From contig JAUSHI010000007.1 of assembly GCA_030648055.1 (NCBI GenBank), positions 49,621 through 113,620 on the forward strand: 64,000 nt of DNA, written 5' to 3'. The DNA comes from a bacterium (GTDB lineage Bacteria; Patescibacteriota; Minisyncoccia; Sungbacterales; SURF-37). This document shows, one piece after another, positions 4,581 to 27,660 of the stretch (positions are counted from its first letter, which is position 1; the number at the start of each line of letters is the position of its first letter). The notes under the pieces are model-generated. The model had not been told where the DNA came from, did no database searches, and saw nothing but the letters and a program-made list of their open reading frames with translations. Both the position numbers and the translations under genes were made by a program.

Positions 4581-6347
4581 ATGACCGATGCCTGGCAAAA
4601 ACTCGTTAACGGCATTATTTCTATGGGCTACCTAAAAACGCCCATTATCATTGATGCCTTCAAAACTGTAGACCGCGCGGATTTTGTGTTGCCAGAATAC
4701 AGAGCCATGGCATACGAAGACCGCGCCCTGCCGATTGGCGAGGGCCAGACGATTTCCCAGCCGCTCACCGTCGCTTTCATTCTTGAACTTTTACAACCAA
4801 AGAAAGGAGAAAAAATACTTGATGTCGGCCACGGCTCCGGATGGCAAACGGCGCTCATCGCTAAACTTGTCGGGGAGAAAGGAACAATAATCGCCGTTGA
4901 GCGGCTTCCCGCGCTTTGCAAGCTGGGAAAACAAAATCTTGAAAAATACAATCTTACTCAGAAAGGAATAGTAAAAACAATCTGCGGGGACGCAAGCGGG
5001 GGAATCCCAAATGAGGCGCCGTTTGATAAAATAGTTGCCGCCGCGTCCCTAAATGGGCGAGCCCTAGGGCGCCCGGCGCCCGGGCTAGCCCATCGGGCTT
5101 TAGCCGCCACAAAAGAACTTCCCAAAGAATGGAGAAATGAACTTAAGATCGGCGGAATAATTGTCGCGCCCATCGCCAATTCAATATGGCGCTTCACTAA
5201 AAAAAGCAAAAGCGAATGGCAGGAGGAAGAATTTCCGGGTTTTTCATTTGTTCCGCTAATCACGGAAGAAAAGAGGCTCGTGTTGCCAAAAAGGGGGAAC
5301 GCGCCCGATGAACCCGCGAAAATAAAAATCGCATTTTCTTTTTTAGTGCTGACCATGATTGCGGGCTACTTATTTTATGAACTTTTTGCTCCGCTTAAAC
5401 TTGAACAGCAAAAAACAGAAATTGAAATAAAAGAAGGCGCGGGCCTTCGTGAAATTGCCTCGGAACTAAAAAATAAAAAAACAATCCGCTCGCGCTGGCT
5501 TTTTATCGGCTGGGCTATTACCGGCGGAAACGCGCGTAATTTAAAAGCTGGAAATTATGTTTTTGAAAGTGCTGCCGATATTCCCGATACCATAAACCGG
5601 TTAGTTAGAGGCGAAGAATTGCCCAATGAACGAATTATAACCATACCGGAAGGATGGAATATAGACGATATCGGCATATATCTTGAATCGCAAAACATAA
5701 CTGCAAAAAAGGATTTATTTGTTGCTACGGGCGCGCCGCGCGTTTTAAATAAAGAAACGGAGCTCAAAAAACGTTTAAAGACGCGCTTTGCTTTTTTAAA
5801 CGAACTGCCTGCGGGACTAAGTTTTGAAGGATATCTTTTCCCGGACACCTACCGCGTTTTTAAAGATTCACCCGCGGAAGAAATAACGGAAAAAATGCTG
5901 GATAATTTTCAAAGAAAAATAACTCCAGAAATGCTTATTGAAATAAAAAAACAAAAAAAGGGTCTTTTTCAAATAATCACCGTGGCCTCGCTCATTGAAA
6001 AAGAAGTGGCCAAGGTCGAAGACCGCGCAATTGTGTCCGGAATATTGTGGGAGCGTCTGGAAATAGGAATGGGGCTTCAGGTAGACGCGACTATTTTATA
6101 TATCGCAAATAAAAAAGCCGGACACATATCGCCGGACAATTTTCTTATTGACTCACCGTATAACACCTACAAATATCGCGGCTTGCCCCCCGGCCCGATC
6201 GCAAACCCCGGACTTTCAACAATACGCGCGGCAATATATCCGAAATCTTCGCCGTATCTTTATTATCTTTCCGCGCCCGACGGCCGAACTATTTTTTCCA
6301 AAACGCTTGAAGAACACAACATCGCGAAGGCGAAATATTTAAAGTGA
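4581..6347 (+). CDS. Fusion of protein-L-isoaspartate O-methyltransferase (Pcm) with an MltG/YceG-like endolytic transglycosylase
   Basis: N-terminal part carries the SAM-MTase motif DVGHGSGWQTA and Pcm-like PFDKI..AAA. A TM segment FSFLVLTMIAGYLFY follows. C-terminal part has YceG-like LQVDATILY and SPYNTYKYRGLPPGPIANPG. Confidence 0.75.
   Translation: MTDAWQKLVNGIISMGYLKTPIIIDAFKTVDRADFVLPEYRAMAYEDRALPIGEGQTISQPLTVAFILELLQPKKGEKILDVGHGSGWQTALIAKLVGEKGTIIAVERLPALCKLGKQNLEKYNLTQKGIVKTICGDASGGIPNEAPFDKIVAAASLNGRALGRPAPGLAHRALAATKELPKEWRNELKIGGIIVAPIANSIWRFTKKSKSEWQEEEFPGFSFVPLITEEKRLVLPKRGNAPDEPAKIKIAFSFLVLTMIAGYLFYELFAPLKLEQQKTEIEIKEGAGLREIASELKNKKTIRSRWLFIGWAITGGNARNLKAGNYVFESAADIPDTINRLVRGEELPNERIITIPEGWNIDDIGIYLESQNITAKKDLFVATGAPRVLNKETELKKRLKTRFAFLNELPAGLSFEGYLFPDTYRVFKDSPAEEITEKMLDNFQRKITPEMLIEIKKQKKGLFQIITVASLIEKEVAKVEDRAIVSGILWERLEIGMGLQVDATILYIANKKAGHISPDNFLIDSPYNTYKYRGLPPGPIANPGLSTIRAAIYPKSSPYLYYLSAPDGRTIFSKTLEEHNIAKAKYLK
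5046..5110 (+). other. In-frame GC-rich quasi-palindromic insertion inside the Pcm domain
   Basis: The sequence tccctaaatgggcgagccctagggcgcccggcgcccgggctagcccatcgggctttagcc encodes SLNGRALGRPAPGLAHRALAAT. It sits between the conserved PFDKIVAAA and ELPKEW segments. It contains GGGCGCC/GGCGCCC and GGGC..GCCC self-complementary blocks. Confidence 0.5.
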
Positions 6348-6350
6348 AAT

Positions 6351-6499
6351 ACCCCAGCACCAATTTTGCGAAATAATGTGTTGGCGAAGCGCTTCGTTCA
6401 TTAAGGGATGTGCCTATTCGGCACCCGCGCTTCGCGCTGTTTACTGAAATTTCTATGCCTGGTATTTTGCTGTCTTAGAAAGCAAAATTGGTGCGGGGT
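6351..6499 (+). repeat. Hairpin element family B, copy B1
   Basis: Terminal inverted repeats ACCCCAGCACCAATTTTGC (6351-6369) and GCAAAATTGGTGCGGGGT (6482-6499). Core GGCGAAGCGCTTCG..GGGATGTGCCTATTCGGCACCCGCGCTTCGC is shared with 11371-11515. Starts 4 nt after the stop codon. Confidence 0.8.
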
Positions 6500-6541
6500 T
6501 CTATTGTTTGCCGCTCCGACTAAACGTCGGAGGCAAACAAT

Positions 6542-6565
6542 GAAAAATCCCCGAATGATTCGGGG
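6542..6565 (-). terminator. Rho-independent terminator for the PDZ gene
   Basis: CCCCGAA/TTCGGGG stem; on the minus strand it is followed by ATTTTT. Confidence 0.65.
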
Positions 6566-6584: not shown

Positions 6585-7307
6585 CTACTTCACCGCGAGC
6601 AGTTCATCAATCTCCGCATATTGCTTATCGGCCCACTGATAGTATGCATCAAGGATCTGTCCGACTGGCGTAATGCGCGAATCCACCCTACTGGTAAGCG
6701 GAGCGGCATTGGCGGCCTCAAGTACTTTCACCGCCGCCTCGGCGGCACTCACAAACTTGGCAATAAGGTTCGCGCCTTCTTTGCGTATGCGCGCCTGCAA
6801 AATCTCCGCCTCGGCGGTCTTGTCGGGCCGAAGCACTGCCGTGTTCGCAGTGATGTTTATCTTCGCATCCTTCCGTTGGAGCTCAAAGACCACCGCTCGC
6901 CCGGGCTTGCCGTCGCCACGAATCTCTTTCATAAACTCTTTGGATGTCGTAAACGGCTTGCCGTTGACAGAAAGCACCAGATCATTTTCCTCTATACCGG
7001 CCTTTTCCGCGGGCTTCCCCTTTATGGTGCTGTAGATTGCGGGAAGCGTCTTGCCGTTCAGTTCGAAGAGCTCAAACTTAACGCCAATGCCCACGATCTG
7101 GCCTGCGTTGTCAAGCCGCCTCACCATTCCATCGATCTCTTTCTGAATTTTCTGTGGCGTCTCCTTCATCCTTCTCACCATAACCGCCTTTTCATCCGCC
7201 TTCTCGGCTTGGGCATCCTTCTCGGCGGCGAAAATGGAAAAGTGAGATGCGGGCAGGATAATCAAAACCAGCATCGCGACAAGCGCCAGTACAAGCACTC
7301 TTTTCAT
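6585..7307 (-). CDS. Secreted PDZ-domain protein
   Basis: AGGAGG upstream of the ATG. Signal-like N-terminus MKRVLVLALVAMLVLIILPA. PDZ-like GKPAEKAGIEENDLVLSVNGKPF. Confidence 0.7.
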   Translation of the reverse strand: MKRVLVLALVAMLVLIILPASHFSIFAAEKDAQAEKADEKAVMVRRMKETPQKIQKEIDGMVRRLDNAGQIVGIGVKFELFELNGKTLPAIYSTIKGKPAEKAGIEENDLVLSVNGKPFTTSKEFMKEIRGDGKPGRAVVFELQRKDAKINITANTAVLRPDKTAEAEILQARIRKEGANLIAKFVSAAEAAVKVLEAANAAPLTSRVDSRITPVGQILDAYYQWADKQYAEIDELLAVK

Positions 7308-9021: not shown

Positions 9022-9089
9022 CTAAAATTTCTTTTGTTCTTCAAACAGTCCTCCTTCGCTAAAGCTTCGGAGGATAAAAGAAATTTTAG
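9022..9089 (+). promoter_or_regulatory. Long stem-loop in the pnp 5' leader
   Basis: CTAAAATTTCTTTT (9022-9035) pairs perfectly with AAAAGAAATTTTAG (9076-9089). Inner stem is TCCTCC/GGAGGA. Ends 44 nt upstream of the pnp ATG. Confidence 0.6.
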
Positions 9090-9132
9090 AGAAAGCTCTT
9101 CCGCTTGCGGACACGAATCCAATCATATATTT

Positions 9133-11334
9133 ATGGAAGGAAAAAAATTCAATATGGAAATCGGCGGAAAACTTATTTTCGCTGAACTCACTCCGCTCGC
9201 TTGGCAGGCAAACGGCCATGTTATCGTGCGCCTGGGCGATACGACAGTTTTAGTTACCGCGGTAATGTCCAAAGACCCGAGAGAAAGCGGGGATTTTTTC
9301 CCGTTAACTGTAGAATACGAAGAAAAGTTCTATGCCGCAGGAAAAATTTTCGGAAGCCGCTTTATTAAGCGCGAGTCCCGGCCATCGGAAGAAGCAATTC
9401 TTTCCGCGCGACTGATTGACCGCACCATCCGCCCGCGATTTGACCTCCGCATGAGAAACGAAGTGCAAATTGTCGCAAGCATTCTTTCTTTTGATGAGCA
9501 GAACGATTCCGATATCCCAGCACTCCTCGGCGCTTCTCTGGCGCTCTCGCTTTCAAACATTCCTTGGGACGGTCCAGTGGCTGCAGTGAGAATCGGAAAA
9601 ATAAACGGAGAACTCATAATTAACCCGACGCTTGAAGAACGGCAAACCTCCACGCTTGATTTAGTTGTCTCCGGCACTGAATCAAAAATCAACATGGTTG
9701 AGGCCGGCTCCAACGAAGAACCCGAGGCCGAGATACTGCGGGCCATGGCCTTCGCTCATGAACAAATCAAAAAACTCATCGCGTTTGAGCAAGAAATAAT
9801 TAACTTCGTGCGACCAGAAAAAACTTCCGTTAAGCTTTCCGAAAAAACCGGCCCAATGCATGAGGCGCTGTTAAGTAATTTCTCAAAAGAGCTTGAAAAG
9901 GCGCTTTGGGAAAAAAATAAAATAGAAAGAAACTCCAAACTTTCTTCAATAAAATCAGAATGGATGGAGCATGCCAAAACAAATTTCGCCGATACTTTTA
10001 CTCCGCAGTCGGCAAATTATATGTGGGAAGAAGAAATAGACAGCATAGTACACCGAAGAATTATTGATAAGGGCGAGAGGCCCGACGGAAGAAAACTTGA
10101 TGAATTGCGCGCCCTTTCGGCTGATGTCGGGATATTGCCGCGGGTGCATGGTTGCGGGCTTTTTGTGCGGGGAGAAACGCAGGCCCTTTCTGTGTTAACT
10201 CTTGGCGGTCCGGGGGACAAATTAATCATTGAGGGCATGGAGGTCAGAAAGAAAAAACGCTTCATACACCAGTATAATTTCCCGCCCTTTTCTGTGGGCG
10301 AAGTTAAGCCGATGCGCGGCCCGGGACGCCGCGAAATCGGGCACGGGGCCCTGGCCGAACGGGCTTTAACGCCTCTTATCCCTTCAGAAGAAGATTTTCC
10401 TTACACCATACGGATTGTTTCGGAAATTCTTTCTTCTAACGGTTCATCTTCCATGGCTTCGGTCTGCGGCTCTACTCTCGCGCTTTTTGACGCAGGAGTA
10501 CCAATGAAAAAACCTGCGGCCGGAGCGGCTATGGGCCTTATGATGAAAAACGAAAAAGAATACGCGGTCCTCACCGACATTCAGGGACCAGAAGACCACT
10601 ATGGAGATATGGATTTCAAGGCCGCGGGAACCAGAGACGGCATTACAGCACTCCAGATGGACGTCAAAATTGACGGCGTAACCTTGGAGATGCTTGAAAA
10701 AACTCTTACTCAAGCAAAAGCCGCCAGAATGCAAATTCTGGATGTGTTGGAAAAAACCCTGCCCGCCCCAAGACCGGAACTTTCCCCCTACGCCCCGCGC
10801 ATTATTACTCTTAAAATAAATCCTGAAAAAATCGGCGCGCTCATTGGCCCTGGTGGCAAGGTCATCAACGAGATTATCGCCCAAACCGGCGCGCAAATAG
10901 ACATAGAAGACGACGGCACCGTATTTATTACATCGGATACTAAAGAAGGAATGGACAAAGCGGTAAATATGGTAAAAAATGTCACCAAAGAAATTAAGGC
11001 CGGCGAACTGCTTGAAGGCAGGGTGTCGCGCATGTTTGATTTTGGAGTGATGGTAGAAATCGGACCGCGGCTTGAAGGCATGGTGCATATATCTGAACTG
11101 GCCCCATGGAGAGTTGAACGAGTAACCGATATAGTTAATGCGGGTGACATAATTCCTGTTATAGTAAAAGAAATTGATGATCAGGGCAGAATCAACTTAT
11201 CGCTAAAGCGCGTACCGGGACGCTATTCTGAAGAAGAGATGGCTAAACACGCCTCGGAGGGGGGTGGCTTCGGAAGACCGAGCCACGAAGGAGGCCCGCG
11301 AGGACACAGTAGCGGACCGAGGCGCCATCATTAA
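9133..11334 (+). CDS. pnp: Polyribonucleotide nucleotidyltransferase (PNPase)
   Basis: Start chosen at ATG 9133 (MEGKKFNMEIGGK). Two RNase PH-like halves (FPPFSVGE, GRREIGHG), then KH (GPGGKVINEI) and S1 (GRVSRMFDFGVMVEI) domains, plus a Gly/Arg-rich tail. Confidence 0.9.
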   Translation: MEGKKFNMEIGGKLIFAELTPLAWQANGHVIVRLGDTTVLVTAVMSKDPRESGDFFPLTVEYEEKFYAAGKIFGSRFIKRESRPSEEAILSARLIDRTIRPRFDLRMRNEVQIVASILSFDEQNDSDIPALLGASLALSLSNIPWDGPVAAVRIGKINGELIINPTLEERQTSTLDLVVSGTESKINMVEAGSNEEPEAEILRAMAFAHEQIKKLIAFEQEIINFVRPEKTSVKLSEKTGPMHEALLSNFSKELEKALWEKNKIERNSKLSSIKSEWMEHAKTNFADTFTPQSANYMWEEEIDSIVHRRIIDKGERPDGRKLDELRALSADVGILPRVHGCGLFVRGETQALSVLTLGGPGDKLIIEGMEVRKKKRFIHQYNFPPFSVGEVKPMRGPGRREIGHGALAERALTPLIPSEEDFPYTIRIVSEILSSNGSSSMASVCGSTLALFDAGVPMKKPAAGAAMGLMMKNEKEYAVLTDIQGPEDHYGDMDFKAAGTRDGITALQMDVKIDGVTLEMLEKTLTQAKAARMQILDVLEKTLPAPRPELSPYAPRIITLKINPEKIGALIGPGGKVINEIIAQTGAQIDIEDDGTVFITSDTKEGMDKAVNMVKNVTKEIKAGELLEGRVSRMFDFGVMVEIGPRLEGMVHISELAPWRVERVTDIVNAGDIIPVIVKEIDDQGRINLSLKRVPGRYSEEEMAKHASEGGGFGRPSHEGGPRGHSSGPRRHH

Positions 11335-11370
11335 TAAGATTTTTAAATTGAGATATCCTATGTAATATGG

Positions 11371-11515
11371 CCCCCCGCCAATTTTGCAGGGCGTACCCCG
11401 GCAAAGCGCTTCGCCCATATGGGATGTGCTATTCGCACACGCGCTTCGCACAAGTTATACATGCGCATCTTTCCTCCAATTTTTACAATTTCTGACGGCA
11501 AAATTGGAAGGGGAT
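11371..11515 (+). repeat. Hairpin element family B, copy B2
   Basis: Terminal inverted repeats CCCCCCGCCAATTTTGC and GGCAAAATTGGAAGGGGA. Core GGCAAAGCGCTTCG..GGGATGTGCTATTCGCACACGCGCTTCGC. The inner hairpin GTGC-TATTC-GCAC is a paired 1-bp shortening of B1's GTGCC-TATTC-GGCAC. Confidence 0.8.
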
Positions 11516-11568
11516 GCTCATGATTGTAACTAAATTTTATTCGCTAAAGCTCTAAAATTTAGACAATC

Positions 11569-12486
11569 ATGGCAGATCAAGGACGACAAAATCAACAACC
11601 CTCCGGACAAAGGCCCGAGCCAAGCTCCGCTCGGCCAGAACCAAAAATTCGGACCATGAAATCGGATATTGATAAGTTCATGAAGGATACGAAACCCTCG
11701 CTTATTCAAATGATGACTAAGCAAGCGGAATACCGGTCCCCGGAAATAGAGAAAGAGGAGAAAAAGTTCCCGACAAAAATCATTTTAATAGTCGCGGGTT
11801 CCATGGTTGTCTTGGCGGTTTTGGGTTGGCTTGGCTATATCCTGCTCACACCGCAAACCCCGCCACAACAGGCAAAAACTTCCGCGGGTAAAACCACGAC
11901 GGGCGAAGAAATTCCCGCCTCTCCAATTTTGACTGAAAAAACACAAACCGCGACTTCATTGCGAAACCCGATTCAATTGCAAAAAATAATTTTTGACGCG
12001 GCTCAAAACGCAGAACGCCCCCAGTCCCTCAAGCGCCTGGTAATCAAAATTAAAGAAGCCGACGGCGGCACCGGTTTTCTTACGGCAAAAGATTTTTTTG
12101 ATATTCTTAACATCCCCGCACCCCAGCAAGTTCAAGACACCCTTAGAGACCAGCTATTCTTATACATTTACTATACTTCAACCGGCCTCCCGCGCGCGAT
12201 ATTTATCGCACCCTCACGCAACCCCGAACGTATGCGCGGAGGAATGTTCGCTTGGGAAAGTTCTATGGAGCGCGACTTGGACACTCTTTTTCTCGGTGCC
12301 ACACCAAATCAAATTGTCGCCCCCTTTTTTGACAAGACATTCAGAAACATAGATTACCGCACCCTTGCCTTAGAACCCGGAACCGAGGTGGGATACTTTA
12401 TGTTTTCCGCGAAAAACTTCCTGGTTATAACGACTTCCGATGAGGCGCTTCAGGTCGCCATCAATCGGCTATTTGAATCAAGGTAA
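11569..12486 (+). CDS. Hypothetical membrane-anchored protein
   Basis: 305-aa ORF. Disordered basic N-terminus, a single TM (IILIVAGSMVVLAVLGWLGYILL), then an extracytoplasmic domain. Confidence 0.55.
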   Translation: MADQGRQNQQPSGQRPEPSSARPEPKIRTMKSDIDKFMKDTKPSLIQMMTKQAEYRSPEIEKEEKKFPTKIILIVAGSMVVLAVLGWLGYILLTPQTPPQQAKTSAGKTTTGEEIPASPILTEKTQTATSLRNPIQLQKIIFDAAQNAERPQSLKRLVIKIKEADGGTGFLTAKDFFDILNIPAPQQVQDTLRDQLFLYIYYTSTGLPRAIFIAPSRNPERMRGGMFAWESSMERDLDTLFLGATPNQIVAPFFDKTFRNIDYRTLALEPGTEVGYFMFSAKNFLVITTSDEALQVAINRLFESR

Positions 12487-12527: not shown

Positions 12528-12908
12528 ATGACACTAGACCAAAAAACAATTGAAGAATTAAAGCAAAAATTGCTGTCGGAAAAAAAGATACTGGAAGGAA
12601 CCCTTTCCTCTATTGCCTCGCCCGACCCGAAAATGAAAGGGGATTGGGATACTAAATTTCCGAGCATGGGCGATAAATCAAGTTTTTCATCGGGAGCGCT
12701 GGAAGAAAGAGCAGACGAAATTGAAGAATATTCCACCGAGCTTGCCGAAGAATTTAGCATGGAATCGCGCCTTAAAGAAGTAAATTCGGCGATGGAAAGA
12801 ATGGAGAAAGGAACATACGGAACGTGCGCAAGGTGTGGAGAAGAAATACCGCTTGAGCGTCTCCAGGCCAATCCTGCCGCGGCAACGGACATTAAACACG
12901 CCGAATAA
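12528..12908 (+). CDS. DksA/TraR-family zinc-finger-like protein
   Basis: C-terminal GTCARCGEEIPLERLQANPAAAT matches the DksA/TraR pattern. The second CxxC is replaced by DIKH. Confidence 0.6.
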   Translation: MTLDQKTIEELKQKLLSEKKILEGTLSSIASPDPKMKGDWDTKFPSMGDKSSFSSGALEERADEIEEYSTELAEEFSMESRLKEVNSAMERMEKGTYGTCARCGEEIPLERLQANPAAATDIKHAE

Positions 12909-12913
12909 TACTC

Positions 12914-13067
12914 GCAATTCCTTTTTCGCACGACGCTTCGGTTTTGGATATGCGAAGCCGAAAAGCTTCGGGGAGCCCTCCCTTACGCTGCGGCTCGGGT
13001 TTCCCTTCTTGCTTTTCTCACCGCATATTTTCCAAAACCTCCGCTATTGTGCGAGAAAAGGAATTGC
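12914..13067 (+). repeat. Long branched hairpin element C just after the dksA-like stop
   Basis: GCAATTCCTTTTTCGCAC (12914-12931) pairs with GTGCGAGAAAAGGAATTGC (13049-13067). Inner pairing GGTTTTGGATATGCG / CGCATATTTTCCAAAACC. Tip hairpin GAAGC-CGAAAA-GCTTC. Confidence 0.7.
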
Positions 13068-13690
13068 TCGCTTTGGGGAGAGTATTAAAGGAAGCGCTTA
13101 AGCGCCACTTTTTATTTTGTAGCCGCGCCTTCGCAATGAAAAATTTTTGCTACTGCTCCGCTAATATATAATATGAAATAAAAAAGCCCTGATTCATTCG
13201 GGGTTTTGTGTTGCGCGCCCTGCGCATTTTTCCGCTTTAGCACTATAAGAAAACAGTGGTTCAAGAAAACGAACAATAAGCCGCTCACCAATCTCACGAG
13301 TATTATTGTTGTGTGAATATTCGAGAGAACACAAGCATGCGACAAGCACAAACCACTTTTACATGGATTAATTTTCCCAAAACATACCGCAAATAAGCGC
13401 GCCCACATCCGGCGCGAAGCGACCCGTAATCGCAATCGCTCCTCTCACCCGTCTCTTAAAGACACCGGTCTATCTCTCTGAAAAAACCAGACAATCGTCC
13501 GGATATGGCCTGGTTGGTATAAATAGGGCTAATGATACTGTCAATTTTGACAACCGCATTGCGCCTTGCTACGAATGGTTTATCACAATTCATAGAACAT
13601 GAAGCTCATAGCATAAAAAACACTGCGTAAAACATCTAACACAGAACAGGCGCGTGCTCCATGTTTTATGTTATATGTGTTATAACACTT

Positions 13691-15211
13691 ATGGTCAAAC
13701 TCTCCTCCGCGCAACTTACCGGACTCGACGCAACAATCATAACAGTAGAAGTGGACCTATCGCCCGGCCTTCACATTTTTTCAATTGTCGGCCTCGCCGA
13801 TAAAGAAATTCAGGAGTCCCGCGAACGGATAGGCGCGGCGGTAAAAAATATCGGCGGCAGAGCTCCGCACAAAAAAGCCCAGCGTATAATAGTCAACCTC
13901 GCCCCGGCCGACATAAAAAAAGAAGGGCCGGCTTTTGATTTGCCCATTGCTCTTGGTTTTTTGCTTGCCTCGGAACAGACAAGATTCAATCCGGAAGGAA
14001 AACTGTTTTTAGGCGAGCTCGGACTAGACGGTTCGGTAAAACCGATACGCGGGGCGCTCGCTTCAACAATTGAGGCAAAAAAACATTCTTTCAAAACTAT
14101 TTATGTTCCAAAAGGCAACGGAAACGAGGCCGCCCTTGTCGGAGGCATTGAGGTCAAAGAAGTGGGAAGCATACTGGAACTTCTTGATGATCTGGAAAAT
14201 AAAAAAGAAATTGCCGCGCACATCCGTGAAGAAAAAGCAGGAGAAGATATTATTTTTTCTAATTTTTCATTAATCAAGGGACAGGAACACGCCAAACGCG
14301 CTCTGGAAATCGCCGCCGCTGGGGGGCATAATCTTCTAATGCAGGGGCCTCCGGGCACGGGCAAAACCATTCTTGCCCGTTCACTTCCTGAAATCCTTCC
14401 AAAACTCTCATACGAAGAAACAATTGAAGTTACAAAAATTTACAGCGCTACCGGATTTTTAAAAGCAAGCGATGAGGCTGTCATTAAACGGCCCTTCCGT
14501 TCGCCTCACCACACCGCCTCCCCCGTTTCAATCGCCGGAGGAGGAAACCCGATGCGCCCGGGAGAAATAACGCTTGCCCATCGCGGAGTTCTTTTTCTTG
14601 ATGAACTGCCGGAATTCCAATCAAACGTGCTTGAGGCTCTTCGCGAACCTCTAGAAGAGCGCGTCATCACCGTATCGCGCGCGCAAGGAACCGTCGCGTT
14701 TCCGGCACATATAATTTTAGTCGGGGCAATGAACCCGTGCCCGTGCGGACACTTGAATAATCCTCCCCATGAATGCGTCTGCACGCCAGGCCAAATTACA
14801 AAATACCAAAGAAAAATATCAGGCCCGTTGCTCGACCGCATTGACTTATTTATTGAAGTGCCGCCGGTAGAAATCAAAAAAATTGATGAAGAACACCAGG
14901 AAACGAACGAGGCGGAAGCGGCCCGGCAAAGAGTGAAAAAGGCGCGGGGAATCCAGCGCGAACGATTTTTAAACGAAAAACTTCTTACCAACTCCGAAAT
15001 GGGCCTTCGCGAAATTAAAAAATACTGCCCGCTTAATGAAGAAACTAAAAAAATCCTGCGCCAGGCCTACGAACAATACGCCATGTCGGTGCGCTCATAT
15101 TACCGAACCATCAAAACCGCGCGCACCATCGCCGATCTCGCCGAATCTCAAAACATAGAAACACCCCATCTCCTTGAAGCCCTTCAGTATCGAGCCAGAG
15201 TAGAAATTTAA
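13691..15211 (+). CDS. comM: Mg-chelatase-like AAA+ ATPase, YifB/ComM family
   Basis: Start chosen at ATG 13691 (MVKLSSAQLTGLDA). Walker A GPPGTGKT, Walker B VLFLDELPEF, ChlI-like core. Confidence 0.85.
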   Translation: MVKLSSAQLTGLDATIITVEVDLSPGLHIFSIVGLADKEIQESRERIGAAVKNIGGRAPHKKAQRIIVNLAPADIKKEGPAFDLPIALGFLLASEQTRFNPEGKLFLGELGLDGSVKPIRGALASTIEAKKHSFKTIYVPKGNGNEAALVGGIEVKEVGSILELLDDLENKKEIAAHIREEKAGEDIIFSNFSLIKGQEHAKRALEIAAAGGHNLLMQGPPGTGKTILARSLPEILPKLSYEETIEVTKIYSATGFLKASDEAVIKRPFRSPHHTASPVSIAGGGNPMRPGEITLAHRGVLFLDELPEFQSNVLEALREPLEERVITVSRAQGTVAFPAHIILVGAMNPCPCGHLNNPPHECVCTPGQITKYQRKISGPLLDRIDLFIEVPPVEIKKIDEEHQETNEAEAARQRVKKARGIQRERFLNEKLLTNSEMGLREIKKYCPLNEETKKILRQAYEQYAMSVRSYYRTIKTARTIADLAESQNIETPHLLEALQYRARVEI

Positions 15212-17677: not shown

Positions 17678-19648
17678 ATGGACTCCATCCTGGAAGGCTT
17701 AAACAACAAACAGCTTGAAGCGGTAACGGCCGTAGAAGGACCGGTATTGATAATTGCCGGGGCCGGCTCCGGAAAAACAAAGGCCCTCACGCACCGGGTG
17801 GCCCATTTAATATCACGCGGGATAAACCCATCATCAATTCTCGCGGTCACCTTCACCAATAAAGCGGCGGATGAGATGAAGACAAGAATCGCCGACCTCT
17901 TAAAAAAACACACTGCCAAAGAATCTCCAAAACTATTCCAAAAAGGAACGGCATCGCCTTTCGTCGGGACTTTTCACTCTCTTTGCGTATCAATCCTCCG
18001 TGAAGAATGCTCCAAAATAAAATTTCAAAGAAATTTCTCAATTTTTGATGAGGATGATTCGCTTTCACTCTTAAAAGAAATCATAAAAGAATTTAACATC
18101 TCTACCAAACAATACCCGCCGGGCATGGTCAGACACACGATCTCTAACCTAAAAAATGAACTAATAAGCGACGAAGAATATTCGGTCACGGCCGGAGAAG
18201 AAATTTTCTCAAAAAATGTTTCAAAAGTTTATGCCGAGTATCAGACGCGCCTGAAAAAAGCCAACGCTTTTGACTTTGATGATTTAATAACAAGCGTGGT
18301 GCGTATCTTCAAAGAAAATCCGGATGTCCTAAAAAAATACCAAGAACGCTTCTCCTACATCCACGTGGACGAATTTCAAGATACCAATATGCCCCAATAT
18401 CTTCTGGTCAGCCTTCTTACCAAATCGCGAGGAAACATCTTTGTTATCGGAGACGACGCGCAATCAATTTATTCATGGCGCGGAGCCGACATGCGAAACA
18501 TTTATAACTTTGAAAAAGAATGGCCTAACACCAAAGTCATACTTTTGGAACAAAATTACCGCTCAACCCAGACGATTTTGGGCGCGGCGAATGATTTAAT
18601 CACCAACAACCCCAGCCAAAAAAAGAAAAATCTATGGACGGAAAACACGGCCGGAGAACCGATAACCCTGATTTCAACCGAAAGCGAGCGGCATGAAGCA
18701 GGGCTAATCGCTGAAGAAATAATTCACTCAATTGAAAATGAAAAGCGCAAACCAAACGACTTTGCCGTACTGTATCGCACCAACGCTCAATCGCGATCAT
18801 TGGAAGAAGCACTACTTGATTCCTCCCTACCCTATGTCATCATCGGCGGCATTAAATTTTTCCAAAGAAGAGAAGTCAAAGACATCGTCGCTTATCTAAG
18901 ATTTCTGCAAAATCCTTCGGATAGCATCAGTTTAAAAAGAATAATAAACCTTCCTCCGCGCGGCATCGGGAGGGTTGCTTTCTTAAATTACATCGGGGGA
19001 GTAAGCGGAAAAAACGGAAGGAAAGAAAAAATAATTTTAGAAAAATTTGAAAGCCTCGTTGAAAAATTGCGCGAAGAACTGGAAAAAAATAATCTCTCAC
19101 AATTCATAAAAACATTAATAAAAAAAATAAATTACCGCGAGTATCTTGATGACGGATCTAATGAGGCCGAGATGCGCTGGGAAAATGTTCAAGAACTTGT
19201 AAGTTTAGCCAAACGCTTTGACAATGTCCCAACAAAAGAGGGGCTCGTGGAACTTCTAAGCGATATCGCGCTTGTGTCTTACGACGACGCGGACAAAACA
19301 GGCCCGAAAGAAAAAATATCACTGATGACCCTGCACGCGGCAAAAGGCCTTGAATTTCCGGTTGTTTTTATCGCCGGACTTGAAGAGGGTATTTTTCCCC
19401 ATTCCAAATCACTTTTAGAGCCCTCCTCACTTGAAGAAGAACGGCGCCTTTGCTATGTGGGAATCACCAGAGCCAAAGAAAAACTTTATCTTTTATGGGC
19501 AGGAAGAAGAACAATCTTCGGCGAAATACAGGCTAATATTCCTTCACGCTTCATAAAAGAAATACCGGAAAAATATCTGGAGGTTTCTGAAACAAGAAAC
19601 ACGGAACAAGGCGGCGGAGAATACGAAGACGAATCTCTTATTTTTTAA
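17678..19648 (+). CDS. pcrA: ATP-dependent DNA helicase, PcrA/UvrD family
   Basis: Walker A AGAGSGKT. Helicase motifs TFTNKAADEM, VDEFQDTN, QNYRST and VGITRAK. Confidence 0.9.
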   Translation: MDSILEGLNNKQLEAVTAVEGPVLIIAGAGSGKTKALTHRVAHLISRGINPSSILAVTFTNKAADEMKTRIADLLKKHTAKESPKLFQKGTASPFVGTFHSLCVSILREECSKIKFQRNFSIFDEDDSLSLLKEIIKEFNISTKQYPPGMVRHTISNLKNELISDEEYSVTAGEEIFSKNVSKVYAEYQTRLKKANAFDFDDLITSVVRIFKENPDVLKKYQERFSYIHVDEFQDTNMPQYLLVSLLTKSRGNIFVIGDDAQSIYSWRGADMRNIYNFEKEWPNTKVILLEQNYRSTQTILGAANDLITNNPSQKKKNLWTENTAGEPITLISTESERHEAGLIAEEIIHSIENEKRKPNDFAVLYRTNAQSRSLEEALLDSSLPYVIIGGIKFFQRREVKDIVAYLRFLQNPSDSISLKRIINLPPRGIGRVAFLNYIGGVSGKNGRKEKIILEKFESLVEKLREELEKNNLSQFIKTLIKKINYREYLDDGSNEAEMRWENVQELVSLAKRFDNVPTKEGLVELLSDIALVSYDDADKTGPKEKISLMTLHAAKGLEFPVVFIAGLEEGIFPHSKSLLEPSSLEEERRLCYVGITRAKEKLYLLWAGRRTIFGEIQANIPSRFIKEIPEKYLEVSETRNTEQGGGEYEDESLIF

Positions 19649-19650
19649 TT

Positions 19651-19760
19651 CCGTTAGAAGCCGCGGTCGCGGTACGAAAAACATCAAAATATGACTATAA
19701 TTGAGGAAAATTATAAGATCAATAATCAGCGGGTACTAACCGCGGCCTGCTTCTAACGGG
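19651..19760 (+). repeat. Hairpin element family A, copy A1
   Basis: Left arm CCGTTAGAAGCCGCGGTCGCGGTAC, right arm GTACTAACCGCGGCCTGCTTCTAACGGG. It fills the whole pcrA-rsmA spacer and ends at the rsmA ATG. Contains a 21-codon ORF at 19691-19756. Confidence 0.8.
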
Positions 19761-20546
19761 ATGAAGCCAAACAAACTTCTCGGACAACATTTTTTAAAAA
19801 ACAAAAAGGTGATTGAAATAATGATAAGGGCCGCAAAAAACGAGCCTGCTGTTGAGTATGTGCTTGAAATCGGACCGGGCCACGGAGTCCTCACGCGAGC
19901 CCTCGCTGAAAAGTTTAAGCATGTTATCGCCATAGAAAAAGATGCATGGCTTGCCGGAGAGTTGGCAAAAAAATTAAACACTGAAAAAATAACAAATTGC
20001 AAAATTATCGCTGGCGATATATTAAAAATAAATTTCCAAAAACTTCTTGGCAAGGCTCCATATGCGGTAATCGCAAATATCCCTTATTACCTTACCGGCC
20101 GCCTTATTCGCCTGCTCTTAGAAACAAAACATAGGCCCTCCTACATAATTTTAATGGTGCAAAAAGAAGTCGCCGAACGAATTACCGCTGGTCCGCCGGA
20201 AATGAATATGCTCGCCCTGTCGGTACAGGCTTTCGGAAAGCCGCGGATTATGGAACACGTTTCAAAAAAAGAATTTTCTCCGCCGCCGCAGGTTGATTCG
20301 GCCATAATAAAAATTTCGGGAATTTCTGAAAAATTTTTTGTTAAAAATAAAATTTCCGAAAAAGAGTTTTTCGCCATAATACGCGCCACCTTTTCTCAAA
20401 AAAGAAAGCGCCTCGCCAATACGCTTGCGAAATTCTACGGAGACAAAAAAATCGCCGAAGAAAAAATAAAAAAAACGGGCCTCTCTAAAAACGCCCGCCC
20501 GCAAGAGCTTACGCTCAAAAAATGGCTTAAACTCTCTGATAAGTAA
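19761..20546 (+). CDS. rsmA: 16S rRNA (adenine1518/1519-N6)-dimethyltransferase
   Basis: LGQHFL, SAM motif EIGPGHGVLT and ANIPYY. Confidence 0.9.
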   Translation: MKPNKLLGQHFLKNKKVIEIMIRAAKNEPAVEYVLEIGPGHGVLTRALAEKFKHVIAIEKDAWLAGELAKKLNTEKITNCKIIAGDILKINFQKLLGKAPYAVIANIPYYLTGRLIRLLLETKHRPSYIILMVQKEVAERITAGPPEMNMLALSVQAFGKPRIMEHVSKKEFSPPPQVDSAIIKISGISEKFFVKNKISEKEFFAIIRATFSQKRKRLANTLAKFYGDKKIAEEKIKKTGLSKNARPQELTLKKWLKLSDK

Positions 20547-22865: not shown

Positions 22866-24670
22866 GTATACTTTCTTTTGACCACAAATCAATAATCGCG
22901 GGGGTACTTCTCTTCGTAGTAATGGCAGGCTTAATTTTGGCGCCACTCACCATAAGAGCCGTGGTGACAACCGAAAGCCCATCGGAAATTGCCAAACTCG
23001 TAACCCTCATCGGCAACGCGGTTAAACAACTTGCCGAGCTAATTTTTCAAAGTGGCCAGCTTAGTTCTCTCAACACCTACTTTATTGTTTGGAAGCCGGC
23101 GGTAAAATTTCTTTCCTCCTTGATTCTCAAAGCGCTCACCGAAAGCATCATCAGGTGGATCCAAGACGGAGGCAATACCAATTTCGTATCAAATCTCCAG
23201 GGCGCGCTTGTGAGAGCCGCGGATGAGGCCGCTGGGGAGTTTCTAAATTATTTTGCAGGAATAAACTTATGCGGTCCCATAGCCAACCCCTTGCGGGGCA
23301 TACTAAGAATACCGAGATTAAGTCTGGACTCCCGCTTAAGCTGTACCGCGACAGGCATTTTCGCGAATCTCCAAACAACTTACCAAGAATTTTTGAACGA
23401 TTTCACCAGTGGCGGCTGGATTGCTTATGAATCAACATTTTACGGCAGTAACAATTACATTGATGGCCTAATTAATTCAATTGACGCAAAACTTGAAGCC
23501 GAGTCGCGACGAACAGCGATAGTGCAGGCAAGATTTGACGCGGGACAAGGATTCCTAGGCATAACTGTCAAAAAGCAAGACTGTAGAAATGCACTACCGG
23601 ATAACACCTATAATGACGGAAGTCTTATCTGCGAAACCGTGGATGTACAAACAACGCCCGGCCGACTCGTTGCCGATACATTATCAAAAGCTGTCGGCTC
23701 GGGCATTGATCAGGCAGTCAACATAAACGATATTGGCCAGGCGCTTGACGCAATAATCGGCGCGCTCATCTACAAACTCGTCACTTCAGCGCAAGCCGGT
23801 CTTTTTTCAAACAATGAACAAAGCGGACTATTTGATCGCGACCTTCTATTAATACCTTCGCCTGAAGAAACACCGCCCATACCTTCACCCCAAGGAACGC
23901 CGCCAATGCCTACGCCTCAAGGAACGCCTCCCGACTTGTATATCTCCACAAGCCCGACACCAATTCAAACAAACATCCTCGCCGGAGATTTGATAGAGTT
24001 TTCTGGCACAATAAAAAACCAAGGGGGAACGGCAATTAATACTCCGTTTAACGCAAGGTTTAAGATTGACGTGGATGATGACGGAACTTTTGATGAAACA
24101 ATAAACGCAAATTCACTAATTTTTAATGTTCCTGCCGGCGGAGAAGTGAAAGTAACTTCAGTATCATGGAGAGCGTCCAACGGTACGCACCGAGTTATAC
24201 TCTGCGCGGAGGCTCTTCCTGCGGAAGCATTGCAAGAAAATAACTGCAGTTTAGGCGGGACCGGAATTTTCGCTGTGGGGCAAAAACCCGATCTTACAAT
24301 ATCCGAAAACCCATCAATATATTCAGGAATACCAAACCCCGGTCAATTAATAATTTTCAAAGGCGAAATTAAAAACCAAGGCGGAGCCGCGGCAACAGCA
24401 ACATCAACATTTGAAAATCGCTTCCAAATAGACCTCAACAATGACGGTACAACCGATATAACTCTCTCCCCGAATCCGACCATAGCCAGTCTCGCCGCGG
24501 GTGCTACACAAACAATTATTTCTCCATCCTGGTCGGCAATTCTGGGCACACACCGAGTAATTCTATGCGCCGACATACCAAGCCGGGTAATAACCGAATC
24601 AGATGAACTTAATAATTGCAATCCGGCGGGTACCGGATTATTTACCATTGGACCTTTTATCTCGCCATAA
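22862..24670 (+). CDS. Membrane-anchored surface protein with a Pro-rich linker and two CARDB/Ig-like repeats
   Basis: Start overlaps the previous stop (ATGA). N-terminal TM. PSPEETPPIPSPQGTPPMPTPQGTPP linker. Two ~115-aa internal repeats (..KNQGG..THRVILCA..NNC..GTG.F..G). Confidence 0.6.
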   Translation: MSILSFDHKSIIAGVLLFVVMAGLILAPLTIRAVVTTESPSEIAKLVTLIGNAVKQLAELIFQSGQLSSLNTYFIVWKPAVKFLSSLILKALTESIIRWIQDGGNTNFVSNLQGALVRAADEAAGEFLNYFAGINLCGPIANPLRGILRIPRLSLDSRLSCTATGIFANLQTTYQEFLNDFTSGGWIAYESTFYGSNNYIDGLINSIDAKLEAESRRTAIVQARFDAGQGFLGITVKKQDCRNALPDNTYNDGSLICETVDVQTTPGRLVADTLSKAVGSGIDQAVNINDIGQALDAIIGALIYKLVTSAQAGLFSNNEQSGLFDRDLLLIPSPEETPPIPSPQGTPPMPTPQGTPPDLYISTSPTPIQTNILAGDLIEFSGTIKNQGGTAINTPFNARFKIDVDDDGTFDETINANSLIFNVPAGGEVKVTSVSWRASNGTHRVILCAEALPAEALQENNCSLGGTGIFAVGQKPDLTISENPSIYSGIPNPGQLIIFKGEIKNQGGAAATATSTFENRFQIDLNNDGTTDITLSPNPTIASLAAGATQTIISPSWSAILGTHRVILCADIPSRVITESDELNNCNPAGTGLFTIGPFISP

Positions 24671-24705
24671 CAGCAATAGCAACAACAATTCTTCTTTGGT
24701 TAGCC

Positions 24706-27093
24706 ATGAAAAATAGCTTAATCCAAAAATTGATTTTTTCTCTCGTTCTCACAAGCGTGATTTTGCCGGTTTTTGCGTTTTCGCTCTCACCACTTCCGGC
24801 CCAAGCCGAGGTTAACGCAAGTAGTGCAGGGCTAAGCACGATTAAAGAAAATGTGGACAAACTTGGAGAGGCCTGCAACGGATGGAACTTGATTTTAAAG
24901 ATTAAGCTAGACTGCATTATCTTAAACACCGTCTGGCTTGTAGATAAATTTTTGGCTGGAACATTTCTTGCCGCCGCTACTTATATTTTTGACATATCAA
25001 TATCGTACAACTTAACGGACATAGCCGGCACAAGCCCGTTTGTAAAAGTCGGATGGGGAATAGTACGCGATATTGCCAACCTGTTTTTTATCTTTATTCT
25101 CTTGTGGATCGCTCTGGCGACTATTTTTGATATTTCCGGTTACGGCGCCAAAGACCTCCTGCGCCAACTCATTATCGCCGCTCTTCTTATTAATTTTAGT
25201 TTGGCTATTGGGGGATTTTTTATAAACTTTACCAACGCGCTTGGAAGAGCTTTTTTAGGATCTCTTCGCGGCGGAAGCTGTGTAATAGGCAACGACCTAT
25301 CGTGCGCAATATCCGCTAAACTGCTGGCCTTTACTCACATACAGCAAGTCACAAATGAACCGACATCCGCCGCTGAACGGAAATCAATTTGTGAAAAAGA
25401 GTATCCTACTTCTGCGTCAAGAGGCGGCGCTGATAAAGCAAAGCTTTATTACGAATGTTTAATATATGACTCCGTGGCACAAACAGTTAGGGCCGGTCAA
25501 CAGGGTGCCGTCCAGAGCGCCATCTACCAAGCCCTTTGGCTTATTGTCATAATCCCCATACTTTCCTTTGTTTTTTTTGCCGGAGCAATCTTTTTCCTTG
25601 CCCGTTATCTTATGCTTTCCTATCTTTTGGTTTTCGCGCCGATAGTTTTCCTGTTTTTCATTCTTCCCACCACCAAACACTATTGGACCGAATGGTGGAG
25701 CAATTTAATAAAATGGTCGTTCTTCGCGCCGGCTTTTTTCTTCCTGCTCTTCCTTACTATTGAAACATTTGATCAGCTTGCCAAAATAAATGTCGCCCAA
25801 GGTAAAGGATTCTTTGGCATCGGCTTTGATATGATTCTTTTAATCGCCATGATGGTTATAAATCTTATGCTCGCGCAAAAAATGGGTATTTATGGAGCAA
25901 GCACGGTAACCGGATGGGGCAAAAGCGCGCAAAAATGGGCCGGCACAACAGCGCGCGGTATCGCCTACCGTGGAGCGGTCAGAGGCGCGGCACCAATGGC
26001 AAAAGCACTTACCGAAAGCCGTACCGGCCGGTTCCTTGCCGGAACACCCGGTCTTCGCGCCTTAACAACTCCGGCGCTTGCCATACAAGAACAGCGAGAG
26101 AAAATTGACGCCGACCGCGCAAAACAAATTGAGCGGGCATCAGCCGTATCTCCAGACCTTGCTCTCGCACGCCTTAATGGCGAGGCCATAGGAGTACAAG
26201 CCGCGTTCGCAAAATCAGCAAGCCCTGAAAATCTGGGCAAGCTCTTAAAAGCAATGCCCGATGCCAAAGCCCAGGAAAACTTTATATCAAGACTTTCTGC
26301 CAATAAAGAAGCCTATGGACTTACCGACATTCTTGATAAAAAAGTAGGCGAAGCAATGGTAAACGAGGCAAATGGGCTTACCTTAAGAGTTGTCGCTAAA
26401 ACCGGCAAAACCAGCGACAACCGCGCAGAATTCCAACAACACGTTAATAATTATCTTGGTGGATTAACCGACCCAGAACTGGCGCAGGCCATGACCGCTA
26501 AATCAATTTCAGGAAACGCATTTGTGTCGGAATATATCCTGAAAAACTTCAAAAACGAAATGCGAATCGGACGAGCCACCCTCGACACTCCGGAGAAAAT
26601 AAAGGAACTTAACGAAATAATTAAAGCGGCGGGAGGAAAAAGAGCGTTTGCGCAAGAAATGAAAAACCGTGGAAATGACCAAGGCGCTAAAGATATTCTA
26701 ACTAGCTTAATCATGAACGTATTAGATGGAGCCGCGGCGCGACCGTTTATAGCGCGCCAAGGCAGAAGGAGAAATGAACAAAACGAGGATTATGAAGACG
26801 AAGACGACGAAGGAGGTGAAGATGGTGGAGGTGAAGGCAATAGTAGACCAAGAAGACCTACGCCAACACAACCAACTTCACCATCGCCATCAACTCCACC
26901 ACCAGCTCCGCCAACACGGCCGCCGCCACCGATAACAACTCCGCCAACAAGACCAACTCCGCCACTACCGCCATCAGCACCATCACCAAAACCCATCCCC
27001 CCAACAGAAAGACCACGCGTAACATATGTACCACCGCCATCAACGCCACCGCCGACTCCACCAACACGGTCAACTCCACCAGCACAGCCGTAG
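24706..27093 (+). CDS. Polytopic membrane protein, VirB6/TrbL-like, with a long tail (acidic patch plus proline-rich tract)
   Basis: Start chosen at ATG 24706 (signal/TM MKNSLIQKLIFSLVLTSVILPVFAF). At least 6 hydrophobic helices. Tail carries NEDYEDEDDEGGEDGGGEG followed by ~90 aa of PTPP/PPTRP repeats. Synteny with virB4. Confidence 0.5.
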   Translation: MKNSLIQKLIFSLVLTSVILPVFAFSLSPLPAQAEVNASSAGLSTIKENVDKLGEACNGWNLILKIKLDCIILNTVWLVDKFLAGTFLAAATYIFDISISYNLTDIAGTSPFVKVGWGIVRDIANLFFIFILLWIALATIFDISGYGAKDLLRQLIIAALLINFSLAIGGFFINFTNALGRAFLGSLRGGSCVIGNDLSCAISAKLLAFTHIQQVTNEPTSAAERKSICEKEYPTSASRGGADKAKLYYECLIYDSVAQTVRAGQQGAVQSAIYQALWLIVIIPILSFVFFAGAIFFLARYLMLSYLLVFAPIVFLFFILPTTKHYWTEWWSNLIKWSFFAPAFFFLLFLTIETFDQLAKINVAQGKGFFGIGFDMILLIAMMVINLMLAQKMGIYGASTVTGWGKSAQKWAGTTARGIAYRGAVRGAAPMAKALTESRTGRFLAGTPGLRALTTPALAIQEQREKIDADRAKQIERASAVSPDLALARLNGEAIGVQAAFAKSASPENLGKLLKAMPDAKAQENFISRLSANKEAYGLTDILDKKVGEAMVNEANGLTLRVVAKTGKTSDNRAEFQQHVNNYLGGLTDPELAQAMTAKSISGNAFVSEYILKNFKNEMRIGRATLDTPEKIKELNEIIKAAGGKRAFAQEMKNRGNDQGAKDILTSLIMNVLDGAAARPFIARQGRRRNEQNEDYEDEDDEGGEDGGGEGNSRPRRPTPTQPTSPSPSTPPPAPPTRPPPPITTPPTRPTPPLPPSAPSPKPIPPTERPRVTYVPPPSTPPPTPPTRSTPPAQP

Positions 27094-27177
27094 TCGCCAA
27101 CGCCTTAAACATTAAACAAACCGCACAAAAAGTGGTTTGTTTAATAAAACCACCGCATGTGTGCACACTATGATAAT

Positions 27178-27206
27178 TTGACAGAAAACTAAAATTAGTT
27201 TATAAT
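27178..27206 (+). promoter_or_regulatory. Perfect-consensus sigma70 promoter
   Basis: TTGACA (27178-27183), 17-nt spacer, TATAAT (27201-27206). Confidence 0.7.
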
Positions 27207-27647: not shown

Positions 27648-27660
27648 TAACGCCCACCCC

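Follow-up and report, generated by a model that had tools for sequence, protein, structure and literature searches.

The DNA under study is a 64,000-nt stretch (the window) from a bacterium of the Patescibacteriota (Sungbacterales; SURF-37), comprising positions 49,621 to 113,620 of contig JAUSHI010000007.1 in GenBank assembly GCA_030648055.1. Within it are two hairpin-forming elements, B1 and B2, each located at a gene end. B1 lies between two convergent genes: a Pcm-MltG (PCMT + YceG) fusion gene (4581-6347, plus strand), whose TGA stop is 4 nt upstream of the element, and a PDZ-domain gene (6585-7307, minus strand) with an intrinsic terminator at 6549-6565 (minus strand). B2 lies between pnp (PNPase; 9034-11334, plus strand, with a likely true start at ATG 9134) and a conserved hypothetical gene, here termed gene X (11569-12486, plus strand). 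The pnp stop is 36 nt upstream of the C-run of B2, and gene X is directly abutted by a second hairpin (HP2) that follows the element. We have found that B1 and B2 are real homologous copies of a previously undescribed family that occurs in a narrow group of the candidate phyla radiation (CPR), of the Parcubacteria type.

Anatomy of B1 and B2

B1 proper occupies 6351-6499 on the plus strand, as defined by its sequence, its fold and a cmsearch score of 132.5 bits. It is closed by an outer stem, P1 (6351-6369 with 6482-6499), the arms of which, ACCCCAGCACCAATTTTGC and GCAAAATTGGTGCGGGGT, are complementary at 17 of 18 positions with one bulged A at 6356. A linker (6370-6383) leads into a conserved three-helix core (6384-6435), delimited from alignments and covariation counts, in which P2 is formed by GCGAAGCGC (6384-6392) and GCGCTTCGC (6427-6435), P3 is weak, and P4 is the hairpin GTGCC-TATTC-GGCAC (6410-6424). 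A variable, AT-rich spacer (6436-6481) follows. B2, which belongs to a subfamily of its own name and was defined by sequence, alignment and a cmsearch score of 121.1 bits, occupies 11354-11513 (plus strand), with outer arms CCCCCCGCCAATTTTGC (11371-11387) and GCAAAATTGGAAGGGG (11498-11513), a core at 11401-11449 containing a 4-bp P4 (11426-11438), and a spacer at 11450-11497. The core common to both reads GC(G/A)AAGCGCTTCG-N7-8-GGGATGTGC(C)TATTC(G)GCAC-N-CGCGCTTCGC, and the inner hairpins differ by a paired 2-nt indel (GTGCC..GGCAC versus GTGC..GCAC). These scores, obtained with a covariance model built from relatives, correspond to E-values of ~1e-24 for B1 and ~1e-22 for B2. Compared with shuffled sequences, the RNA fold of B1 had z = -4.4 on the plus strand and -5.4 on the minus strand, and that of B2 was weaker (z = -1.7 and -2.7, respectively). 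B1 and B2 are the only full copies in the window by both pattern and covariance searches.

An earlier, sequence-only reading of this DNA had picked out B1 and B2 with their outer repeats, shared core, paired indel and distances to the two upstream stop codons, all of which agree with our analysis. The same reading missed HP2 (6499-6544 and 11515-11574) and therefore under-called the size of the unit. HP2 is a bulged hairpin that directly follows B1 and B2 and is found in nearly every copy of the family, starting at the TT after GGGG. In the family consensus, the lower stem is AU-rich (TTATTTGT / ACAAATAA), two nucleotides (AG, AA, TA or CG) bulge out on the 5' side, and the top is GC-rich. In B1, the lower stem of HP2 (6499-6544, plus strand) is formed by TTCTATTGTTTGC and GCAAACAATGAA, with the 2-nt 5'-side bulge and a GC-rich variable top. 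In B2 (11515-11574, plus strand), the 3' arm ACAATCATGGCA is paired with TGCTCATGATTGT and holds the ATG (11569-11571) and second codon of gene X. HP2 tops are wholly different from one copy to the next; this is true even of the paralogues L081 and L087, which are otherwise ~88% identical (related loci are given by L numbers). In L021 and L070, the top is branched. The 5' arm contains GTAGC in about six copies and GTAAC, GCAGC, ACAGC, ATAGC or GCCGC in others; this motif is the 2-nt bulge rather than a single-stranded leader. By eye in the alignments, no obvious sequence is common to HP2 and the other helices. That HP2 can be separated as a module follows from two orthologous copies upstream of 16S rRNA (L097:355-520 and L109:596-748), which differ by exactly its presence, between TTAA repeats. 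These two copies also differ by a 13-nt tandem duplication in the spacer, and both differences are recent indels inside the element.

A long hairpin at 9022-9089 is read as a pnp leader hairpin because it lies upstream of the likely start of that gene. Its loop (TTCGCTAAAGCT; TTCGCTAAAGCTT) and its CTAAAATTT / AAATTTTAG stems resemble the interior of a B2-type HP2 (TTCGCTAAAGCTC), and HP2-like modules may thus exist alone; as a B element, it was rejected by the covariance scan despite its HP2-like loop.

Consensus scans of B1 and B2 detected no promoter inside the element and no intrinsic terminator on either strand, the neighboring terminator at 6549-6565 being the only one found. A Shine-Dalgarno-preceded ATG reading frame on the minus strand of B2, L054 and L124 was considered as a small protein gene and rejected: indels of 2 nt (paired, in P4) and 1 nt (in P3) put it out of frame, and none of the possible frames stays open across the whole set of copies.

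Members of the family and their conserved structure

A first scan with the core pattern, using one genome per species, returned 94 matches, about half of which were expected by chance on a rough estimate. Most lay inside unrelated sequence, and 11 had the full architecture, all in metagenome-assembled genomes of Patescibacteria: Candidatus Sungiibacteriota JACPMF01 (3 contigs), CAZDKA01 (4 contigs), CAYIBD01, UBA2135 DCXN01 (2 contigs) and OZ246416.1, an 886-kb chromosome labelled Gammaproteobacteria. A stricter pattern recovered ~10 more distinct copies from groundwater and sediment metagenome contigs. A covariance model was then built from 21 copies and detected 24 distinct full copies at 98-146 bits, two of which had been missed by pattern, spread over at least nine Patescibacteria/Parcubacteria genomes or contigs. 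Existence of no copies beyond those listed, which the sequence-only reading had named as counting against its interpretation, is contradicted by these 24 full copies. It had also counted a mini version at 51871-51930 as a member; that hairpin scores 9.7 bits (E = 2.8) and is the second hairpin of another repeat family, whose copy lies at 51768-51870. The 10-mer AAGCGCTTCG, with at most one mismatch, is not enriched in the window (14 matches versus 8 +/- 3.3 expected, with 8 of 100 shuffles reaching 14), and the GCTTCG word noted as recurrent in unrelated hairpins is a trivial 6-mer.

Viral contigs and plasmids yielded no family matches, and a phage or plasmid origin was rejected on that basis. 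Membership in a known RNA family was likewise rejected, as Rfam 15 gave no match in the window at gathering thresholds and only noise at E up to 10; on the related loci, Rfam detected only rRNA, tRNA and tmRNA. The names carried by homologues of the flanking protein put the window organism among Sungbacteria-like Parcubacteria. A literature search on CPR MITEs (miniature inverted-repeat transposable elements), REPINs or RNA motifs returned nothing relevant.

All copies share one plan. P1 has 17-18 bp, starts with (A)CCCC, ends with GGGG(T) and usually carries one bulged purine in its 5' arm; the linker is 12-15 nt of free sequence; the core, of ~50 nt, is nearly invariant, with P2 (GCGAAGCGC / GCGCUUCGC) enclosing the weak P3 and the hairpin P4; and the spacer is 46-52 nt, AT-rich and unalignable between copies. 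A structured spacer was rejected, the mean z being ~0 on both strands. L081 and L087 are recent paralogues at different loci of one genome. L023:815-1047 has a ~78-nt insertion in the P4 loop, together with a 10-nt direct repeat (GATAAGAATT) between the left flank and the 3' arm of HP2. L099 and L114 (L114:7199-7402 is the same as L099) contain an inverted partial duplication of the core with a shortened spacer, the duplication in L114 being symmetric about the palindrome GCGAAGCGCTTCGC. An isolated core-only match without outer arms was also seen at L125:557-597, on the 510-kb contig Ga0082335_1000026 (37.7 bits); it may represent either a decayed copy or a distantly related core from a different organism.

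On the model-based alignment, 97.4% of cells pair and 11 of 27 pairs have changed on both sides, a number reached by none of 500 shuffles, with slid 3' partners giving 1-4. The covarying helices are the outer stem, P2 and P4. The alignment was fitted to the model, and individual cases are nonetheless unambiguous: P2 is GCGAUCCGC / GCGGAUCGC and P4 is GACC / GGUC in L074:4165-4319, P4 is GCGC / GCGC in L070:5986-6141, and the outer stem occurs as CACC/GGTG, CTCA/TGAG, CCTT/AAAG and CCCC/GGGG. In the same L074 copy, the palindrome GCGAAGC|GCTTCGC found in the core is lost (GCGATCCGCTTCGC) and P2 is restored by two compensatory changes. It is therefore the helix that is conserved and not the palindrome, which favors a folded strand over a double-stranded binding site.

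The strand that folds was assessed in several ways. Outer-stem RNAduplex energies did not discriminate between the strands (-599.5 for plus versus -604.9 for minus). Outer-stem mismatches are G.U-compatible in 17 cases on the minus strand versus 7 on the plus strand, all four P2 mismatches (L021, L074, L129 and B2) are G.U on the minus strand, and the core folds better on the minus strand in 18 of 22 copies, which are not independent of one another. The P4 loop on the minus strand is GAAUA, GAACA or GGAUA. Most flanking genes run in the plus orientation, opposite to the strand that the wobble pairs favor, and this discordance is explained no less well by a single-strand process at the DNA level than by an RNA function.

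Empty sites and landing sites

Both window copies are insertions: B1 with its HP2 and B2 with its HP2 are absent from the orthologous sites in relatives. The spacer between the Pcm-MltG and PDZ-domain genes is 39 nt in L133 and 49 nt in L132 versus 237 nt in the window. HP2 and B1 are both missing from these two spacers, which consist only of the terminator of the PDZ-domain gene and retain a hairpin homologous to 6549-6565; that terminator is therefore ancestral. The genome to which contig L133 belongs, CAZDKA01, has at least five copies elsewhere. The window junction reads TGAAATA[B1+HP2]AAAAATCCCCGAATGATTCGGGG and L133 reads TAAAAATCCCCGGTTCGTCCAGGGATT, which indicates that ~190 nt were inserted into an A-tract that is the T-tract of the minus-strand terminator at 6549-6565. 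For B2, the spacer from pnp to gene X is 15 nt in L135, 23 nt in L136 and 6 nt in L137 versus 234 nt in the window, and these three loci keep the order S15-NYN-pnp-geneX-DksA or part of it. The start of gene X (ATGGCAGA) is also present in L135; the ATGGCA that is paired inside HP2 is thus the ancestral target sequence. The covariance model found no match on the empty-site loci of either B1 or B2.

A third site is polymorphic in the same manner. The flanks of L120, where a copy directly follows a DksA-like gene, are 80-85% identical to window positions 12842-14031. At this site the window has an unrelated hairpin instead, and L135 is an empty site. Presence/absence comparison, which the sequence-only reading had put forward as a check, therefore gives filled and empty orthologous loci for B1, for B2 and for the L120 site. 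The unrelated hairpin of the window is large (12911-13075), lies right after a DksA/TraR-type zinc-finger gene (12528-12908) and is followed by a plus-strand terminator near 13090-13115. Copies in L066 and L087 occupy sites syntenic to ~27.7-28.2 kb and 29.3 kb of the window. At the latter, the window keeps only an outer-stem relic (29291-29348, plus strand; ACCCAGCACTTATTTT...AAAATAAGTGCTGGG), syntenic to the full copy of UBA2135 in L087; it scores 22.6 bits on the minus strand (29295-29348; E = 0.008) and 19.7 bits on the plus strand (E = 0.03). Furthermore, a short-read Logan contig of the same organism ends inside B1, the same subfamily is found at different loci in different genomes, and B2-type copies are ~86% identical between two genomes with unrelated flanks.

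The inserted unit is ~190-225 nt long and has two modules, the 150-nt module closed by P1 (core and ~50-nt spacer) and HP2. Because the empty sites show that it includes HP2 and, in the B2 type, ~17-20 nt upstream as well, the inverted repeats are internal on at least one side. No consistent target-site duplication was detected: the mean best match between left flank and right end was 4.65 versus 4.35 in cross-locus controls (permutation p = 0.08), the repeats seen being 5-mers at B1 (TGAAA) and B2 (ATGGC) and the one 10-mer at L023.

That the hairpins sit immediately downstream of stop codons, as originally read, holds for about 7 of the 20 or so copies, which start within ~12 nt of a co-oriented stop (those at 0-12 nt include B1, L104, L092, L120, L081 and L124), and not for the rest. 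The sharper anchor is on the other side of the element, where a terminator T-run or an ATGGCA is always on the HP2 side. In B1-type copies, HP2 leads into AAAA(A) and next into a GC-rich hairpin that, on the other strand, reads as an intrinsic terminator. A strict scan placed at least six copies in this arrangement (B1, L021, L023, L070b, L074a and L120), and by eye L104, L123, L092 and L066 also belong here, for a total of ~10. B2-type copies (the window, L054, L124 and L115) are homologous from ~17-20 nt upstream of the C-run to the downstream ATGGCA, beyond which the sequence is unrelated; the four genes that follow are all different (gene X, a RecA-like gene, an L33-like gene and one unidentified). 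Here, TGC(T)CAT in HP2 pairs with the start codon (-21.8 kcal/mol); an alternative partner for this middle segment is an ATGGCAT close to the left end of the element. Other contexts include a position after tRNAs (L115), one ~120 nt upstream of 23S in opposite orientation (L023) and positions upstream of 16S (L097 and L109); neighbors of the various copies include pnp, mltG, recA, rRNA and tRNA genes.

The genome seems rich in elements of 100-150 nt with common C-run/G-run stem ends. A second repeat family, with outer arms ACCCCGCCCTCTATGC / GCTTAGAGGGCGGGGT, is present at 48611-48708, nested in larger inverted repeats (48539-48779), and at 51768-51870, directly followed by the hairpin at 51871-51930. 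A third, at 19645-19765 and 34017-34139, has arms (A)TCCCGTTAGAAAC / GTTTCTAACGGGAT and a common interior (CCGCGGTCGC.GTACG...), and further ACCCC...GGGGT-type elements occur at 27735-27848 and 29133-29235. Several hairpin repeats occupy intergenic spacers of a type IV secretion or pilus-like cluster (24600-35800), the genes of which include a PrgI family member (29372-29815), a TraG/VirB4-like ATPase (30583-32403), a type IV secretion system pilin (34138-34545) and CARDB/TSP3 surface proteins. The window also spans the replication origin region (37800-38320), with rnpA (37441-37782, minus strand), yidC and jag/R3H on one side versus dnaA (38322-39728) and dnaN on the other; at ~38 kb, the GC skew flips sign and its cumulative curve has its minimum. 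Genes to the left of the origin are mostly encoded on the plus strand and point to it, an unusual arrangement that sets them head-on with replication. Between the open reading frame at 34578-35774 and the jag/R3H gene, ~2 kb from the skew minimum, is an AT-rich imperfect palindrome of 98 nt (35774-35871; 49-nt arms, 71% complementary, no spacer).

Nature of the elements and comparison with known systems

The B element is dispersed, non-coding, constrained in structure and gained at specific gene-end sites. With moderate confidence, we interpret B1 and B2 as two members of a new family of insertion elements, small, non-coding and non-autonomous, that resemble REPINs, PATEs or MITEs. It is hypothesized that an enzyme encoded elsewhere in the genome copies or moves the element in trans. 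The element is probably recognized as a folded single strand, and its hairpins with conserved bulges would be the features that such an enzyme reads. Y1 transposases recognize the folded single strands of REPINs and IS200/IS605-derived elements. Replication would continue only in lineages with preserved stems and core, and old copies would quickly be deleted from streamlined genomes, which may explain why an intact core is found beside a saturated spacer. Following insertion, the element would be co-transcribed as a very stable structure in a 3' or 5' untranslated region (UTR), possibly with a secondary effect on mRNA decay or translation, as where the start codon at B2 would be sequestered.

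Several observations weigh against insertion of this kind. Copies are mostly oriented with local transcription, which selfish DNA need not show, and some are conserved in position, L097 and L109 both being upstream of 16S rRNA. There is no transposase, recombinase or reverse transcriptase among the 53 open reading frames of the 64-kb window, and none is evident beside any copy; no autonomous partner is known, and no insertion sequence (IS) related to the element came to light. Even the nearest relatives with empty sites are rather remote, at 55-61% amino-acid identity, which leaves room for lineage-specific loss. Finally, the core is near-invariant and the spacer saturated across genomes whose orthologous proteins are only 55-70% identical, a pattern also expected from in-situ purifying selection on an RNA useful to the host.

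A less likely alternative is one in which the element is a host-functional cis-acting RNA module, serving as 3'-end protection or terminator, or as a 5' switch in the B2 type, and in which dispersal by occasional duplication is secondary. In the proposed switch, ATGCTCAT would pair either with the upstream ATGGCAT, freeing the start codon, or with the downstream ATGGCA, sequestering it; binding of a protein or ligand to the core could decide between the two states. The compensatory changes in three helices are consistent with such a module, as are the invariant core next to an unstructured, saturated spacer, the prevailing co-orientation with neighboring genes, the many copies at 0-12 nt from a stop codon, the highly transcribed settings (after tRNAs, before L33, upstream of 16S and 23S), the three-way complementarity around the start codon of B2-type copies and a U-rich tract after the outer stem. 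However, orthologous genes in relatives do without the element; L066, L070 and L023 are oriented against local transcription; and both the wobble test (17 outer-stem mismatches versus 7, together with all four in P2) and the better folding of the core point to the strand opposite most flanking transcription. Moreover, the terminator scan was empty within the elements, the outer stem is unsuited to intrinsic termination because it closes a ~110-nt loop, and the element has no Rfam relative. A role in the transcript, as the 3'-UTR stabilizer or terminator module that the sequence-only reading had offered beside a MITE-like repeat, is possible. The MITE-like alternative is the better supported half of that interpretation, in a non-classical form: dispersal, several copies per genome and empty orthologous loci speak for it, but the element lacks a consistent target-site duplication, terminal repeats and a related IS.

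We consider it unlikely that the family represents a functional structured RNA or RNA-templated mobile unit, in effect a portable, self-propagating riboregulator. Its three-helix core, with a putative GNRNA-type pentaloop on the minus strand, would bind a CPR-specific protein, and its terminal segments would toggle between outer-stem extension and HP2, recognize targets (ATGGCA start codons and terminator tails) by base pairing and control the adjacent gene. An RNA-mediated (retro-)mobile element, in which the minus strand would be the active RNA and would insert in sense orientation after a terminator U-tract via a reverse transcriptase or other trans factor, in the manner of class C group II introns, is more doubtful still. 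It would account for the minus-strand order of terminator hairpin, T-run, HP2 and element in at least 6-10 copies, for the minus-strand bias of G.U-compatible mismatches and for a minus-strand P4 loop that is putatively GNRNA-like. Against it, the unit is only ~190 nt, has neither group II domains nor GUGYG...AY ends and lacks an Rfam intron match; the window encodes no reverse transcriptase; B2-type copies are at start codons and not terminators; and the strand bias is modest, among copies that are not independent. A double-stranded DNA site for a nucleoid-associated or regulatory protein, made of GCGAAGC|GCTTCGC and a third half-site GCGCTTCGC at fixed spacing from the arms, is highly improbable, for although the core has a 14-bp perfect palindrome about which the rearranged L114 copy is symmetric, and linker (12-15 nt) and spacer (46-52 nt) are constant in length, the palindrome is destroyed in L074:4165-4319 with the long-range P2 restored by compensation, and descent without indels accounts for the constant length.

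Genomes of CPR/Patescibacteria are tiny, streamlined and usually described as poor in mobile DNA. Our analysis indicates that several CPR lineages share a conserved, structured non-coding repeat with filled and empty alleles and precise targeting of terminator tails and start codons. If the insertion interpretation is true, the element would be a marker of genome dynamics in uncultivated CPR organisms, a likely cause of assembly breaks and a candidate substrate for a new hairpin-recognizing mobilization enzyme, possibly supplying RNA structures that are portable and influence what becomes of an mRNA. With the covariance model, copies can readily be counted across whole genomes.

Among known systems, integron attC sites, classical MITEs with terminal inverted repeats and intrinsic terminators each fail a defining test. 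Like attC sites, B elements are imperfect hairpins with extrahelical bases and variable terminal structure located just after stop codons, but RYYYAAC / GTTRRRY boxes are absent, the polarity of the GTT/AAC motif is reversed, the flanking genes are housekeeping genes rather than cassettes, and no integrase is present. Class C group II introns likewise insert right after a terminator U-tract, in sense orientation to the terminated gene. The B element is 3-10 times smaller, however, and lacks intron domains, boundary sequences and an Rfam intron match, so that this comparison fails on size and structure, the boundary sequences also being absent at the insertion site. Classical MITEs (Correia/NEMIS, ERIC, RUP and BOX) resemble the family in their length of 100-200 bp, intergenic location at gene ends, presence/absence polymorphism, inverted repeats that form hairpins in transcripts and possible effects on mRNA processing. 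In contrast to these, the B family has no TA or other fixed target duplication, its inverted repeats are not terminal, it has no known parent IS, and its internal helices covary.

PATEs, which are IS200/IS605-derived, share with the B family the lack of inverted repeats at the true unit ends and of a target duplication, as well as hairpins with conserved bulged bases and insertion in fixed orientation by a T-run or TGCCAT (minus strand). The internal segment of the B2 type, complementary to the flanking target, recalls guide-target pairing. They differ in that the two B-family hairpins are unrelated to each other by eye, that a long-range stem closes the element, that no TnpA or TnpB was found in the window and that the target by the terminator hairpin is structural and not a defined tetranucleotide. 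REPINs are also extragenic, non-coding hairpins of ~100-150 nt with conserved inverted arms around a variable middle; they likewise reach several to many copies per genome, persist for long with conserved arms and often lie between convergent genes, beside terminators. In about six copies, HP2 has GTAGC at the foot of its variable palindrome, which recalls the GTAG of repetitive extragenic palindromes, and other copies have variants of it. Unlike REPINs, the B family has a conserved three-helix core within its hairpin, which is atypical, an obligatory second hairpin and palindrome tops that vary among the copies within a genome; the window encodes no RAYT, and the hosts of the family are CPR bacteria, for which our literature search found no report of REPIN/RAYT systems. 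Given the lack of target duplication, the oriented insertion beside a short target, the bulged hairpins and the target-complementary internal segment, REPINs with their RAYTs and IS200/IS605-derived miniature elements would be the best-fitting analogues of the B family.

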